Shown: one piece after another, positions 35,402 to 41,495 of the stretch
Layout: each line of letters opens with the position of its first letter
Position numbering within the stretch: the stretch's first letter is position 1
Assembly: GCA_951406725.2 (NCBI GenBank)
Contig: OX597835.1
Span: 25,606,001-25,670,000, forward strand
Direction: 5' to 3'
DNA from: Octopus vulgaris
Lineage: Eukaryota
DNA length: 64,000 nucleotides
Notes under the pieces: generated by a model
Told to the model about the DNA's origin: nothing
The model's input: only the letters and a program-made list of their open reading frames with translations
Databases searched by the model: none
Program-made: the position numbers and the translations under genes

Positions 35402-35467
35402 ATCCCACTGACGAAGTACCGATGAGAAATTTATTTGTTCATTAATACAGAAACTCGAGTTTGGGAT
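35402..35467 (+). ncRNA. Type I hammerhead ribozyme fold (Penelope-like element remnant)
   Basis: ATCCCA-CTGACGA-[imperfect long stem II]-GAAA-CTCGAG-TT/TGGGAT; 6-bp stem I, palindromic stem III, GUU cleavage triplet. Confidence 0.7.
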
Positions 35468-35957
35468 TAACTGTAAATAATTGTTATTTTCATTCTCTTT
35501 GAAATTATCTTTTTCGTGGTTTGGGTTTGTCTGCCCTCTCTAGGATGTAAGGTGTCGTGTAAAGGGTCGCCTCTTCTGTGTATAAGTGTTATACACCTAC
35601 ACACACACACACACACACACACACACACACACACACACACATATATATATATATATAAGTGTATAAATAAAGTGCTTTGCTCAAGAACACAATGCAACGC
35701 CCGGTCTGGGAATCGAACCCACAATTTCACAATCACGAGTGCAACAGCCTAACCACTAAGCCATGCGCCTTCACAAATGTGTGTATATATATATATATAT
35801 ATATGTCTATCTATCTATCTATCTATCTATCTATCTATCTATCTATCTATCTATCTATCTATCTATCTTTCTATCTATCTATCTATCTATCTATCTATCT
35901 ATCTATCTATCTATCTATCTATCTATATATATATATATATATATATATATATATACC

Positions 35958-36177
35958 CGAGGGGATGCTGACAATTTTCTGGGTTTAAGGGTATCGAGAA
36001 TGTCCTGGTTGGAGGCCCAACCTTCCGAGTTCTTTTAGAGGGCATAGAAAAGCTGACACCCGGCTGTCAATAAGTGTGTGAGACTGAGAAGGGGAATATG
36101 TTGAATAAAATCATAATTAAATGATCCTACAGTGATCCTTCTTTTACCCAAAGCCAGGAACTTTTAGCACCCTCTCG
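35958..36177. mobile_element. mariner-derived MITE
   Basis: Imperfect TIRs CGAGGGGATGCTGACAATTTTCTGG / CCAGGAACTTTTAGCACCCTCTCG followed by TA. Confidence 0.65.
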
Positions 36178-36294
36178 TAGAAGTATAACCAGTTTATTGT
36201 ACATAAATTTCAACAACAAGATCATATATGTACCTTTCAATGGTCACATGGGCCCTGGCTCTTACTTTCACTTTCATTTTCGTTTCTATTCCAG

Positions 36295-36451
36295 ATATTA
36301 ATATGCATTCTGGTTGGTTGGTTGGTGTGTGGTATTTTAACAGCAACCAATGTCTTCCCAAACGACCCGACACTGAAATCCTATAAAGCTCGAACCGATT
36401 CCCGAATTCACGTATTGAAGAACTTCAGCTGGTTCTATATCCCGTACCCAC
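36295..36451 (+). CDS. SLC23-family transporter exon 7
   Basis: TTCCAG|ILICILVGWLVCGILTATNVFPNDPTLKSYKARTDSRIHVLKNFSWFYIPYP|GTAAGT; ARTD and WFxxPYP motifs. Confidence 0.94.
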
Positions 36452-37061
36452 GTAAGTGTAAACTCAGCCTTAAAACTGACACTCGAAAAACAAAAAAAAA
36501 AACAACCTTTCCCCTCAAAAAACAAAAAAAACAAAAACAAAAACAATTTTATGTACCATTTAAATGCTTTAATGGATATCTGAATATATGTATGTATGTA
36601 TGTATGTATGTATGTATGTATGTATGTATGTATGTATGTATGTATGTATGTATGTATGTATGTATGTATGTATGTATGTATGTGTGTGTATGTATGTACG
36701 TATGTATGTATGTATGTATGTGTGTGTGTGTGTATGTATGTATGTATGTATGCGTGTATGTATGTATGAGTGTATGTGTATATGTATGTGTATGTATGTA
36801 TGTATGTGTGTATGTATGTATGTATGTGTGTGTATGTGTATATGTATGTATGTGTGTGTATGTATGTATGAATGTATGTATGTATGTATGTATGTATGTA
36901 TGTATGTATGTATGTACGTATGTATGTATGTATGTGTGTGTATGTATGTGTATATGTATGTGTATATGTATGTATGTGTGTATTTATGAATGTGTGCATG
37001 TCTGAATGTATGTATGAGTGTATGTATAAGTGTATGTATGTATATATGTATGTATGTGTGA

Positions 37062-37376
37062 AGGCGTGTGCCCTAGTGGTTAGGGCATTCAGTTCATGAT
37101 CGTAAAGTCGTGAGTTCAATTCCCGGCGACGCGTTGTGTCTTTGAGCAAGGCATTTTATTTCACGTTGCTCAAGTCCACTCAGCTGGCAAAAATGAGTTG
37201 TAAGTGTATTTCAGTGTGACACTTTGTGTCACACTGAATCTCTCTGAGAAATACGTTAAGGGTACACGTGTTTGTGGAGTGCTCAGCGACTTGCTCGTGA
37301 AGTTAACTTCACGAGAAAGCTGTTCTGTTGATCGTATCAGCTGGGATCATCATCGTCGCAACCGACGGAGTGCTCC
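37062..37376 (+). mobile_element. CORE-type tRNA SINE; related copies at 35660-35772 (-) and 46350-46695 (-)
   Basis: tRNA head, then TTGTGTCTTTGAGCAAGGCATTTTATTTCACGTTGCTC CORE-like domain. Confidence 0.7.
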
Positions 37377-37515
37377 TATGTATGTATATATGTATGTATG
37401 TATGTATGTATGTATGTATGTATGTATGTATGTATGTATGCATGCATGCATGCATGCATGCATGCATGCATGTATGTATGTATGTATGTATGTATGTATG
37501 TATGTATGTATGTAG

Positions 37516-37837
37516 TCATAAAACGAGACAGATGAGTGACAACCTGGCCACTGGTGGTGGTGTAACACACCATACTAATCATATCTGCCTGGCATGTGGA
37601 AGAGAGTGTAATTCGGCAGGAAAACTTAAACGACATGCAAGGGTACATGAAGCCCAGTTACAACTACAGCCGACTATTACCAGTAAAGGTTTTAGTTGCC
37701 AATTTTGTACAAGACATTGTAGATCTTTAGCTGGGCTAAAAAATCACATTCGATCACAGCACCAGTAACAGTTAAGCTTCGTGCAATGGCCATACTCGAT
37801 AACGAGGGGGCAGCCATAATAATAATAATAATAATAA
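37516..37837 (+). mobile_element. RTE-type LINE 3' end encoding C-terminal C2H2-like fingers
   Basis: CLACGREC..LKRHARVH and CQFCTRHCRSLAGLKNHIRSQH*, then a short 3' UTR and (ATA)n tail, embedded in (TATG)n. Confidence 0.65.
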
Positions 37838-38659: not shown

Positions 38660-38687
38660 GTAAGTGATGGAAAGAGAAATCGCAGAT

Positions 38688-39420
38688 CATTATCATCATC
38701 ATCATCATCATCATCATCATTATTATTAATATTATTATTATTATTATTATTATTATTATTATTATTATTATTATTATTATTATCATCATCATCATCATCA
38801 TCATCATCATCATCATTATTATTATTATTATTATTATTATTATTATTATTATTATTATTATCATCATCATCATCATCATCATCATCATCATTATTAGTAT
38901 TATTATTATTATTATTATTATTATTATCATCATCATCATCATCATCATCATCATCATCATCATCATCATTATTATTATTATTATTATTATTATTATTATC
39001 ATCATCATCATCATCATCATCATCATCATCATCATCATTATTATTATTATTGTTATTATTATTATTATTATTATTATTATTATTATTATTATCATCATCA
39101 ACATCATCATCATCATCATTATTATTATTATTATTATTATTATTATTATTATTATTATCATCATCATCATCATCATCATCATCATCATCATCATCATCAT
39201 TATTATTATTATTATTATTATTATTATTATTATTATTATCATCATCATCATCATCATCATCATCATCATCATCATCATTATTATTATTATTATTATTATT
39301 ATTATTATCATCATCATCATCATCATCATCATCATCATCATCATCATCATCATCATCATCATCATTATTATTATTATTATTATTATTATTATTATTATTA
39401 TTATTATTATTATTATTATT
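38688..39420. repeat. Alternating (ATC)n/(ATT)n block microsatellite
   Basis: About nine ATC blocks alternating with ATT blocks, roughly 9-20 triplets each. Confidence 0.95.
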
Positions 39421-40091
39421 GAATGAGAGAGCAGAGCATGCCATCAAAGTCACACTGGGGTAAAATATACGAAGCCCAGTATACCCATCATGACTACCCG
39501 TCTGATAAGGGTACACCAGGTACATGCATCACAACGATGTGTGCGCGACATGGTGATCTCATATCAAGATAAACATCACATGACCTTGCAGGTGGGGCCC
39601 GGTTAGAATTTTCTTCTGTTCGAGTAACCCATCCAGCTCAAAAGGTCCTTGACTGAGGGTTGTTTAAGGATGCTGAACGAAACACCCATGTTTTCAAAGT
39701 GAATTATTCAAACCCCATAGAATCCCTCTCAAAACATGGCTATGATGCTCCCCGATGATTTCTGCTCGTGATCAGAGATGCACATATCGTCAGCCACCAA
39801 AGGACATGCTCAACTGGTTAAGGTCAAACAACTGACAAGCAAGTCTGTGGTATTGATCAGAATATTTGCTGTATACCATCTTTTATATCAAGACAAAACA
39901 ATGTACATAATAACACTTCCAATCAATTAAGATCAGAAGCCATGAGAGCCACTGCCTGGTTCTGCAACAGGGCATTTATTATTATTATTATTATTATAAT
40001 TCAAATAGCTCTTTTGTCTTAATAACGGTCAATCACACAGTAATTTCCCTTTGTATAACGGTTATTTTTCATAGTATTTTCTCGATGGTCG

Positions 40092-40152
40092 GATAACTGA
40101 AGAGATGGCGGCGTGGATTTCCACCTCCGCATCCGAAACTCGGTGTTTTATC
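40092..40152 (+). ncRNA. Type I hammerhead ribozyme fold (Penelope-like element remnant)
   Basis: GATAA-CTGAAGA-[GATGGCGGCGTGGA-TT-TCCACCTCCGCATCC]-GAAA-CTCGGTG-TT/TTATC. Confidence 0.65.
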
Positions 40153-40725
40153 ATGGCTACCGAATAATTGTCACATATTACATTTACAGATAAATTCGTC
40201 TATTTACATAATTTCGAGGTCTCTTTCATTCTTTTGTTGTCTTACCATTTTTATCAACATATATATATATATATATATATATATATATATATATTAACAA
40301 TTGAGGATAAAATCTTTAAAAGAAATTATCAGTAGTTAGCGTGAAAAACCTCGTAAGAGAAAAAATCCGTAAATTTTTCCACTTTGAAAATATTTATTTA
40401 TATTATATTGAGGGTACTACTATTCGTAGATACCATACGCTAAGAGGAACCAATGCGGTCAAAACTACTAAAATAAAAAAACATTTTACCGAATGCAAAA
40501 CTTCAAAGAAAATCATTTAAAAAATACTGAATTTTTATTCCGAGTAAGTAATTTGTTACCTAAAGTAAGCAATTTGTTACGCTAAAAGTGGACAGAAAAC
40601 GATTACCTATGTACCATTGTTAATATTCACGTATATGGACACACAAACATCTGCAAGATCATCAGTATAGTCTGTCATTTATGTTCTGTGTCTAGTTCTG
40701 GAAATTGTGTTTTGTAAACGACAGA

Positions 40726-40799
40726 CTATGCTGATGATCTTGCAGATGTTTGCGTATCCATATACGTAAATATTAACAAGTGAAACCAATGGTACATAG
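40726..40799 (+). ncRNA. Type I hammerhead ribozyme fold (Penelope-like element remnant)
   Basis: CTATG-CTGATGA-[long stem II]-GAAA-CCAATGG-TA/CATAG; 5-bp stem I, GUA triplet. Confidence 0.75.
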
Positions 40800-41410
40800 G
40801 TAATCGTTTAATATTTCGTATATTTTCATTTGTCTTACTTATTTTTACATTTTGTCTTTTTTGCTGAGATTTTCCTTGAGAACACATTCTTCGTGGTAAT
40901 GGCGATTTGACGTCTATGTTTAGCATATAGGCTGTCCACTTTTAGTGGTCAGTCCTCTAAATTTTGTATGTAACGCAATTTTAATCTTCGGAATTTTTAA
41001 AAATATGTTAAGCCACTGGTTTTAATTGATTAATATCAATTTCTACCCTTATTTAATTATATATATATATATATATATATATATATATATATATATATAT
41101 ATATATATATATATATATATATATATAAATGCATTGTAAATAAACAACGACAGGTAAACAACCGTATACGTATAAGACACAGAGGGTCCCTAATTCTTCA
41201 TCAGTTATCGTCCTGAATGGTAATACTCAGTTTCGCACCTTTAATGAAAAGACTCTTTTTTTAGCCACTCTAAATCATTGTAGGCTTTAGGTATTTTATC
41301 CCTAAATTCATTCTGATACAAATAATAGCAAAAAGAAACAATGTACTAGTCCCTAGTACTGATGAAATATTTGCTCAAAAATTATAATGGAAAAATTTAT
41401 ATGGTCGTAC

Positions 41411-41495
41411 GCATCTGAGGAGAGCGGTTTATTTCAAATTGATGTAATGTTTGCATTGATCGATTAAATGGAGCCGCTTGAAACGGCCGTAATGC
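41411..41495 (+). ncRNA. Type I hammerhead ribozyme fold (Penelope-like element remnant)
   Basis: GCAT-CTGAGGA-[GAGCGGTT...AGCCGCTT]-GAAA-CGGCCG-TA/ATGC; palindromic stem III ACGGCCGT, GUA triplet. Confidence 0.75.

Follow-up and report, generated by a model that had tools for sequence, protein, structure and literature searches.

Long-stem-II hammerhead motifs in introns of an octopus SLC23-like gene as probable 3' remnants of four Penelope-type families

The closest described relatives of the hammerhead motifs analyzed here belong to the Hydra clade of Penelope-like elements (PLEs), which includes Hydra-1_Obim from Octopus bimaculoides (Craig et al. 2021, PMC8557442). As set out in that paper, the clade is defined by RWK, DKT, CxCX5C, CxxC and CxH motifs and by the absence of CCHH; its members encode a GIY-YIG-type nuclease, have units shorter than 3 kb, target (TA)n and carry in their pseudo-long terminal repeats (pLTRs) a hammerhead with an 8-9 nt palindromic stem III. 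The minimal PLE hammerheads (Cervera and de la Pena 2014, PMC4209133) are also of type I, with a short stem I and a palindromic stem III; they are reported mostly as solitary truncated copies, with opposite-strand pairs 100-700 bp apart and many families per genome. Non-LTR retrozymes (Cervera and de la Pena 2020, PMC7229834; Li et al. 2026, bioRxiv 10.64898/2026.07.22.740005) are head-to-tail units without open reading frames (ORFs), from monomers to multimers, with one type I hammerhead each, and have been proposed to be non-autonomous PLE derivatives. We compared these systems with four hammerhead motifs (F1 to F4, labels also used for their families) that lie in introns of an SLC23-like transporter gene of Octopus vulgaris, within a 64,000-nt stretch of contig OX597835.1 (positions 25,606,001 to 25,670,000, forward strand; hereafter the window, to which all plain coordinates refer). 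We conclude, with a probability of about 0.87, that the four are 3' stubs of four Penelope-type families inserted in intronic microsatellites, and that they likely served the processing of element RNA and are now likely inactive passengers.

A both-strand descriptor scan of the window, which asked for the core, GAAAC, GUH and a stem I with at least four Watson-Crick pairs, returned four motifs, compared with 0.02 expected from 100 block-wise dinucleotide shuffles (maximum 1). All of them are on the + strand, have the type I hammerhead core (CUGANGA, GAAA, NUH and three stems) and are open at stem I. The F1 hammerhead (35402..35467) combines a 6-bp stem I, the core CUGACGA, a 35-nt stem II region and stem III ACUCGAGU. 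The F2 hammerhead (40092..40152) has a 5-bp stem I, CUGAAGA, a 31-nt stem II region and stem III ACUCGGUGU; the F3 hammerhead (40726..40799) a 5-bp stem I, CUGAUGA, a 44-nt stem II region with U-U at its base and stem III ACCAAUGGU; and the F4 hammerhead (41411..41495) a 4-bp stem I, CUGAGGA, a 58-nt stem II region and stem III ACGGCCGU. The cleavage triplet is GUU in F1 and F2 and GUA in F3 and F4, with cuts predicted after 35461, 40147, 40794 and 41491, respectively. In coordinates, cores, stem I and stem II sizes, triplets and cut positions the motifs are exactly as described in an earlier sequence-only reading of the window. An Rfam search of 40000-41600 gave no hammerhead at E<=10, and a whole-window search, the only one to cover the site at 35402, gave none among the best 150 of 301 matches, probably owing to the long stem II. 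The Rfam matches listed for the window are microsatellite-driven miRNA models.

Each motif sits in its own 5'-truncated, + strand insertion of 260-380 bp that ends in a (TA)n/(CA)n tract. The F1 copy (35262..35596), ending in (CA)n(TA)n, represents an ORF-less, circularly permuted Penelope-type unit of ~465 bp. The F2 3' stub (39999..40257), made up of pLTR and tail and followed by (TA)n, belongs to the older subfamily, with U4 in its core, of an autonomous Hydra-type family. The F3 copy (40683..41060) represents an ORF-less 534-bp head-to-tail unit, and the F4 3' stub (41254..41615) a family whose tail meets a broken Hydra-type ORF start in four other loci; both end in (TA)n. Searches of the 2.8-Gb genome with each motif produced 174 (F1), 524 (F2), 1102 (F3) and 2716 (F4) first-look candidates; 40 candidates were scored per search, and the listed best copies were 81-96% identical. 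Each search yielded its own dispersed family, and the claim of four separate families is thus upheld. Family copies are 5'-truncated at varied points and often have an inverted 5' copy, while their 3' ends fall mainly at two positions in each family, each followed by a microsatellite (for F2, about +45 and +111 relative to the cut site). A microsatellite was found within 500 nt at 25/25 F2, 23/25 F1, 19/25 F3 and 11/12 F4 loci. All these traits, namely 5' truncation, inverted 5' copies, two 3' ends and (TA)n tracts, are given as Penelope-like hallmarks in PMC8557442, although the spacing of the two 3' ends is 60-100 nt here and 30-40 nt there. This anatomy, together with the F2 ORF and the broken ORF start behind the F4 tail, bears out the Penelope-like origin suggested earlier.

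In one F2 copy, a nuclease-like frame lies ~0.9 kb upstream of the motif and is preceded by a reverse transcriptase (RT)-like frame. A genome search with this F2-linked protein gave 20,810 candidates; 150 were scored, many at one identical score. Locus L124 is a whole F2 element, consisting of an inverted 3' copy, pLTR, a 717-codon open frame, pLTR and (TA)n. Its hammerheads, one per end, are 2,589 bp apart (intact unit ~2.6 kb), and four other copies are 97-99.6% identical to it. The L124 protein, read in translation, has RWK, DKT, the CxCX5C linker, CxxC and CxH, and no CCHH. F2 also has the Hydra-clade layout: a single ORF with RT and then a C-terminal GIY-YIG (domains judged from motifs) in a unit below 3 kb, a pLTR hammerhead, an inverted 5' copy, a tail and a (TA)n target. 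Among the Atlas neighbours of the F2 protein (0.96-0.99), HTH_animal, GIY-YIG or RVT_1 occur on 18-100% of members; a search of the element protein against solved structures gave no significant match. Judged by these motifs, F2 is a probable Hydra-clade PLE. The young F2 subfamily (L121-L127) has intact 717-codon frames and hammerheads in which core position 4 is C instead of U (U4C). Separately, pattern matches at 2.58-kb spacing at G000:C1:57208924-57222508 suggest tandem arrays of whole young F2 elements. Sequencing runs were also considered: 20 of 24 rows contain the young F2 3' end, none of them recorded as RNA, and contigs of four presumed-RNA runs cover F2 (one over 2,482 nt) with no joint at the cut site. 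These were left unused as evidence because contigs cannot show ends, strand or level.

In four distinct loci, all broken, the F4 tail leads into the beginning of an ORF that shows RW and DKT-like motifs. An endonuclease fragment located behind F4 in L224 was assigned to another family and rejected. As a side observation, L223 and L224 contain a divergent Hydra-like nuclease that lacks the CxCX5C linker and is joined to an abundant hammerhead family with a 53-55 nt stem II.

F1 and F3 have a different organization. Among the copies that reach the 5' edge of the unit, the unit's own tail lies directly upstream of that edge in at least 14/30 F1 and at least 24/32 F3 copies (counted by a strict script; more for F1 by eye), and a same-strand ORF within 600 bp upstream of the unit occurs in 0/30 and 0/32, respectively. 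The repeat periods are 434-470 bp (F1) and 519-534 bp (F3); an F1 dimer was found at 470 bp (L016/L226) and F3 dimers with two hammerheads at 534 bp (L287, L288). ORF matches near F1 (6/55) and F3 (1/55) loci are on the other strand, downstream or in neighbouring insertions, as checked in the opened loci L223, L225 and L226 and judged by coordinates in the rest. With ORF-less head-to-tail repeats and one type I hammerhead per unit, F1 and F3 fit non-LTR retrozymes as putative non-autonomous PLE derivatives. They differ from the published retrozymes in their 465-534 bp units (known from DNA only), PLE-type tail, 5' inversion, (TA)n target and long stem II; any target-site duplications would be masked by the microsatellite targets. 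Cephalopods are absent from the sets in PMC7229834 and bioRxiv 10.64898/2026.07.22.740005 as far as these were available. If the ORF-less units make circular RNAs, retrozymes would extend to cephalopods and would be tied to Hydra-type elements by tails, inversions and targets. The same retrozyme organization is seen in a family other than F3 at L289 (G000:C1:5011000-5013000), where ~3.5 units of 534 bp, 100% identical and each with a long-stem-II hammerhead, lie between TA tracts. This array looks like a very recent rolling-type insertion; its family occurs also with a U4C core. An internal 126-bp piece of F1 without the hammerhead has been amplified as a local tandem array at L015/L033/L193 (G000:C7:58.29 Mb).

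Palindromic stems III are common to all four families. The window F2 stem III is a point mutant of the family form, ACUCGGAGU, with a self-duplex energy of -3.0 vs -9.7 kcal/mol. F1, F3 and F4 form self-duplexes at -10.7, -8.2 and -14.1 kcal/mol, respectively, and cross pairs range from +0.3 to -6.9. Compensatory substitutions and changes in length (ACCAAUGGU to ACUAAUUAGU) have left stem III palindromic, also at central positions that are unable to pair in a hairpin (helix 4 in the covariation analysis), and this points to dimers. The same conservation tells against the possible, though less favoured, alternative that the long-armed motifs cleave as monomers, F1 and F3 being retrozymes with circular RNAs of ~465 and 534 nt and the long stem II giving a tertiary contact or stability that is missing from minimal forms. 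That alternative agrees with the remnant reading on origin and differs from it on activity. It can draw on the 8-10 nt stems III, which can form 2-3 bp hairpins, on the F3 hammerhead fold, which is its minimum-energy fold, on the tandem units with a hammerhead each (the F3 dimers and the identical L289 array) and on the invertebrate retrozymes reported to cleave as monomers and form circles (PMC7229834). Of the frog retrozyme dimers, 1/9 is reported to cleave in vitro (bioRxiv 10.64898/2026.07.22.740005), which also counts against it.

The sequence-only reading had taken the palindromes to be family-specific. This holds insofar as F1, F3 and F4 pair best with themselves, and fails insofar as the same palindromes recur elsewhere: ACAGCUGU, ACAUAUGU, ACGAUCGU and ACAAUUGU are each found in several unrelated families of the genome, and ACUCGGAGU and ACCAAUGGU also occur in Hydra elements described from coral, hydra and octopus; the U-U at the base of stem II is likewise shared with published Hydra hammerheads (PMC8557442). 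The related idea that the palindromes act as family barcodes, limiting dimer cleavage to like partners and silencing solitary intronic copies, we regard as improbable. The self-duplexes of F1, F3 and F4, stronger than all cross pairs, would suit it, as would the F3 palindrome variants, which cross-pair at only -1.0. Nevertheless, a small set of palindromes is common to unrelated families of this genome and to published elements from other phyla, the F1 palindrome pairs with the F2 family form at -6.9, near the self-duplex of young F2 (-7.4), and distance and the absence of a tandem partner explain the silence without barcodes.

The feature that most clearly sets the octopus motifs apart is the length of stem II. 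The pattern CTGANGA-N26-56-GAAAC-NNNN-GTH has 25,816 genome matches vs 1,657 in the reversed control, and the short form (N8-25) has 13,659 vs 949; both patterns leave out the class with 9-10 nt palindromes (F2, F3), in which exact matches number at least 6,501 for F2 and 429 for F3. Among the first 30 long matches, 26 lie within 600 nt of a TA tract, stem I reaches at least 3 bp in 26, and two have an upstream Hydra ORF match. Here the stem II region is 31-58 nt, whereas published Hydra motifs have ~12-26 nt (PMC8557442, File S2) and those in Fig. S3 of PMC4209133 ~23 nt or less; the latter also differ in a mostly 4-nt palindrome, and no cephalopod is named among them in the part of the paper available. 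Long spacers between the core boxes nevertheless have precedent in the PMC8557442 supplement, in PLE-X1_sMoe (~54 nt) and PLE-X1_sTam and in the 'HHR_half_core' of eight Naiads (35-50 nt), including an octopus and a squid family. These are single non-canonical entries. In the present genome, by contrast, most motifs are long-armed, their stems I and III are complete and their helices covary. We therefore see in the long stem II a strong shift in degree and not a new fold. An extended-stem-II class, as proposed from the sequence, stands in that such motifs are abundant and have covarying helices. It does not stand as a discrete class, because the 8-25 nt forms are also abundant and stem II length is a continuum.

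The covariation check proposed in the sequence-only reading gave a positive outcome. In 15 F4-related motifs, 90.7% of cells are paired, compared with 77.1% for shuffles, and slid controls reach no more than 51.7%; the 50 double changes were reached by 0/500 shuffles, although these tests are inflated because the aligned motifs were hand-picked and are related. Double changes affect 4/4 stem I pairs and 5/7 basal stem II pairs; in a second family (11 motifs) they affect 6/11 stem II pairs. Going by these alignments, the long stem II has been maintained as a helix. It might serve in protein docking or in a contact with stem I, which is a guess. Separately, the F2 stem I (40078-40165) can be extended past an internal loop into more pairs, as in canonical type I motifs, and the long stem II might dock there.

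The second departure from published PLE hammerheads is the U4C change, CCGANGA in place of CUGANGA; the core variant in PMC4209133 is U3-A8. In F2, the young intact subfamily, which makes up 23/74 sampled copies, reads CCGAAGA, and exact 17-mers number 3,985 with C4 vs 2,516 with U4. The window F4 core, CUGAGGA, sits in a clade where most copies read CCGAGGA. In the F4 tree, U4 is found in outlying lineages, and the starred clade of 36 copies, which includes the window copy, has 21 CG and 8 TG. Bootstrap support is not settled, and the tree, with T-bearing copies scattered (8 changes), does not force a single origin of C4. At the F4 core site TG occurs in 11/42 and CA in 1/42 copies, compared with 33 and 38 of 270 at other CpG sites; since TG is commoner and CA rarer than at those sites, CpG decay does not fully account for the window copy. 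A short-stem family (4 copies) has the core CCGACGA, and CCGANGA arrays at 399, 493, 534, 547 and ~2,860 bp spacing represent five further families among the first 100 matches listed. Two such arrays, of six 493-bp units (G000:C1:60458949-60461477) and of four 399-bp units (C1:74955916-74957173), belong to other long-stem-II families with U4C cores. The genome count of CCGANGA itself (3,163 vs 3,112 in the reversed control) shows no enrichment and is uninformative because the control is near-equal; the argument uses instead the tandem arrays among the matches listed and the exact counts for F2. Of the other core transitions, A6G has 2,074 matches (control 874) and one GAAA transition 888 (control 1,373); among the first 100 listed, neither gave tandem arrays, only one local cluster of five near-identical copies.

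The identical core change is known from a viroid hammerhead (Perreault et al. 2011, PMC3088659), where, according to work cited there, it lowers in vitro activity considerably yet keeps infectivity. In octopus it is fixed in thousands of genomic copies and occurs in several unrelated retroelement families, and relative to published Hydra elements (PMC8557442) the U4C in the youngest subfamily and the tens of thousands of motifs in many families are both different. We tentatively suggest, at odds well short of even, an undescribed cephalopod radiation of >30,000 long-armed hammerheads (Hydra-type elements plus 400-550 bp retrozymes), in which the newest lineages have repeatedly and independently fixed the cleavage-weakening U4C; slower cutting would leave more uncut, multimeric RNA for genomic copying. 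Selection for weaker cleavage as the cause of U4C is speculative. Lunse et al. (RNA Biology) reportedly described many PLE hammerhead variants, which may include long stems or U4C. With that study outside the comparison, literature searches pairing hammerhead, Penelope and octopus found only PMC8557442, and those for U4C or CCGA cores in hammerheads only PMC3088659, with a single virome paper listed for CYGANGA; the main text of a 2026 octopus repeat annotation (PMC13282606) mentions no ribozyme, hammerhead or retrozyme.

It might also be argued that transposition does not require the hammerhead or its long arm, that both drift within limits and that U4C is simply tolerated. Hammerhead mutants had no effect on in vitro insertion (PMC11167929), Naiads spread without canonical hammerheads (PMC8557442) and stem II length varies continuously. 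We find this rather doubtful, because the various subfamilies retain the core, stem I, basal stem II and the palindrome, with compensatory changes, and the A6G and GAAA transitions give fewer matches and lack the listed arrays. The role of the hammerhead in PLEs is called unclear in the literature we could draw on. F2, with near-identical intact C4 copies and an older sister subfamily with the canonical core, is a ready natural comparison, and if the radiation and U4C reading is true, such paired U4/C4 sister subfamilies make the purpose of PLE hammerheads directly testable.

A mechanism consistent with the remnant reading can be proposed from published work. A tandem-array transcript would bring two like hammerheads together and their palindromic stems III would pair; slow or protein-assisted cleavage after GUH would then release unit-length RNA. 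The element protein would nick AT-rich DNA, with reverse transcription starting ~45-270 nt downstream of the cut site, and the same protein would mobilize F1 and F3 in trans. Full genomic motifs span the cut site, so that the template should be uncut or re-ligated there. Low or protein-dependent cleavage and uncut RNA as template have been described (PMC4209133, PMC11167929), and for an anole element, reverse transcription in vitro is reported to start beyond the cut site, the template being uncut or re-ligated RNA (PMC11167929). Solitary intronic copies would stay silent, having no like partner in the host pre-mRNA and being predicted to misfold.

Several observations weigh against the reading of the window motifs as inactive remnants of Penelope-type families. 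The assignment of F2 to the Hydra clade is based on motifs and by-eye likeness to Hydra-1_Obim, and a Pfam search of the F2 element protein gave no match. No intact F4 element was found, and in the opened loci no F4 copy joins an ORF end to the 3' untranslated region. No autonomous partner for F1 or F3 was found among 55 loci each. The family copies were sampled by similarity to the query, and of the covariation statistics, the 12 pairs with double changes in the 15 F4-related motifs were reached by 53/500 shuffles. For the bare F3 motif, the predicted minimum-energy fold is the hammerhead, and stem I holds with 30-nt flanks, so that some F3 monomer activity is possible. Finally, all five intact cores in the window (the fifth is described below) are on the + strand.

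The strand distribution bears on a further possibility raised by the sequence-only reading, that sense-strand copies cut the host intron co-transcriptionally and alter transporter splicing or expression. The intact cores are all sense, and three of them lie 1.4-2.8 kb from the 5' splice site of a large intron. However, 4/4 sense motifs correspond to p=0.125, 5/5 with the motif at 14713 to p=0.0625, and with fragments added (one + and three -) the count is 6 sense vs 3 antisense (p=0.51). The sense excess is thus not significant, though the location of all intact cores on + is hard to dismiss fully; antisense fragments of the same families are also present. By density alone, ~31,000 motifs genome-wide correspond to 0.71 per 64 kb, and for four or more p=0.006, with ~265 such windows expected. 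The copies themselves are solitary and decayed: they differ by 4-15% from the nearest related copies, and stems II and III have been damaged; the F1 copy has a 4-nt stem II deletion (35 vs 39 nt in the family). In equilibrium predictions, stem I pairing of F1-F3 is high when 10-nt flanks are included, no more than 0.13 once the flanks are extended to 60 nt and 0.00 at 150 nt, and that of F4 never exceeds 0.02. Moreover, harmful active copies should be depleted on the sense strand, not enriched, and frog retrozymes are reported to be depleted in introns (bioRxiv 10.64898/2026.07.22.740005). Given decay and predicted misfolding in context, intron cutting is very unlikely. As a separate observation, conserved positions 41399-41410, just upstream of F4, are predicted to pair over ~9 bp with the stem III palindrome at 41483-41491, a pairing predicted to block both the monomer and dimer folds of F4. 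There is no sign of a host role for the window hammerheads, and the element type is known; the long-arm radiation and recurrent U4C are worth following. The window cluster is ordinary transposon debris, yet it exposes a large hammerhead set missed by Rfam models and short-stem descriptors.

The host gene lies on the + strand, with PF00860 matches at about 32016-32270, 38174-38668 and 56850-57137, and a host exon matches SLC23A1 structures at E 9e-24. The large GT-AG intron that holds F2, F3 and F4 spans 38660..56894 (+; 18,235 nt), in agreement with the 18-kb transporter intron described earlier. The exons flanking 35402 were placed by eye. A long low-complexity open frame starting MDRKYEPV (18136-18846, +) is probably the first coding exon of the transporter. 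In 36125-36450, transporter-like coding runs over two reading frames near 36300, which may reflect a short intron, a frameshift or an assembly error.

The window also contains further pieces of these families. A fifth long-stem-II motif, related to F4 (14709..14795, + strand, end approximate; motif at 14713), has a 3-bp stem I, is truncated at a TA tract and does not figure in the sequence-only reading; the whole stretch (14709-14845, +) is apparently upstream of the transporter coding exons. Two antisense F2 stubs (20893..21038 and 49414..49560, both - strand) are truncated within stem II, the first having no CUGANGA box and the second having a sense stub at 49666-49727 as its partner. An inverted copy of the F3 hammerhead region (40596..40681, - strand), in which a 10-nt deletion removes the GAAA box, is a typical Penelope 5' inversion. 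Finally, minus-strand CUGAUGA boxes at 12724 and 41204 lack a downstream GAAA. The repeat-like stretches 12630-12770 and 41130-41250 (-) adjoin TA tracts, the latter with a GAAAC...GUA box upstream of its core, and are possibly rearranged or half-core PLE ends.

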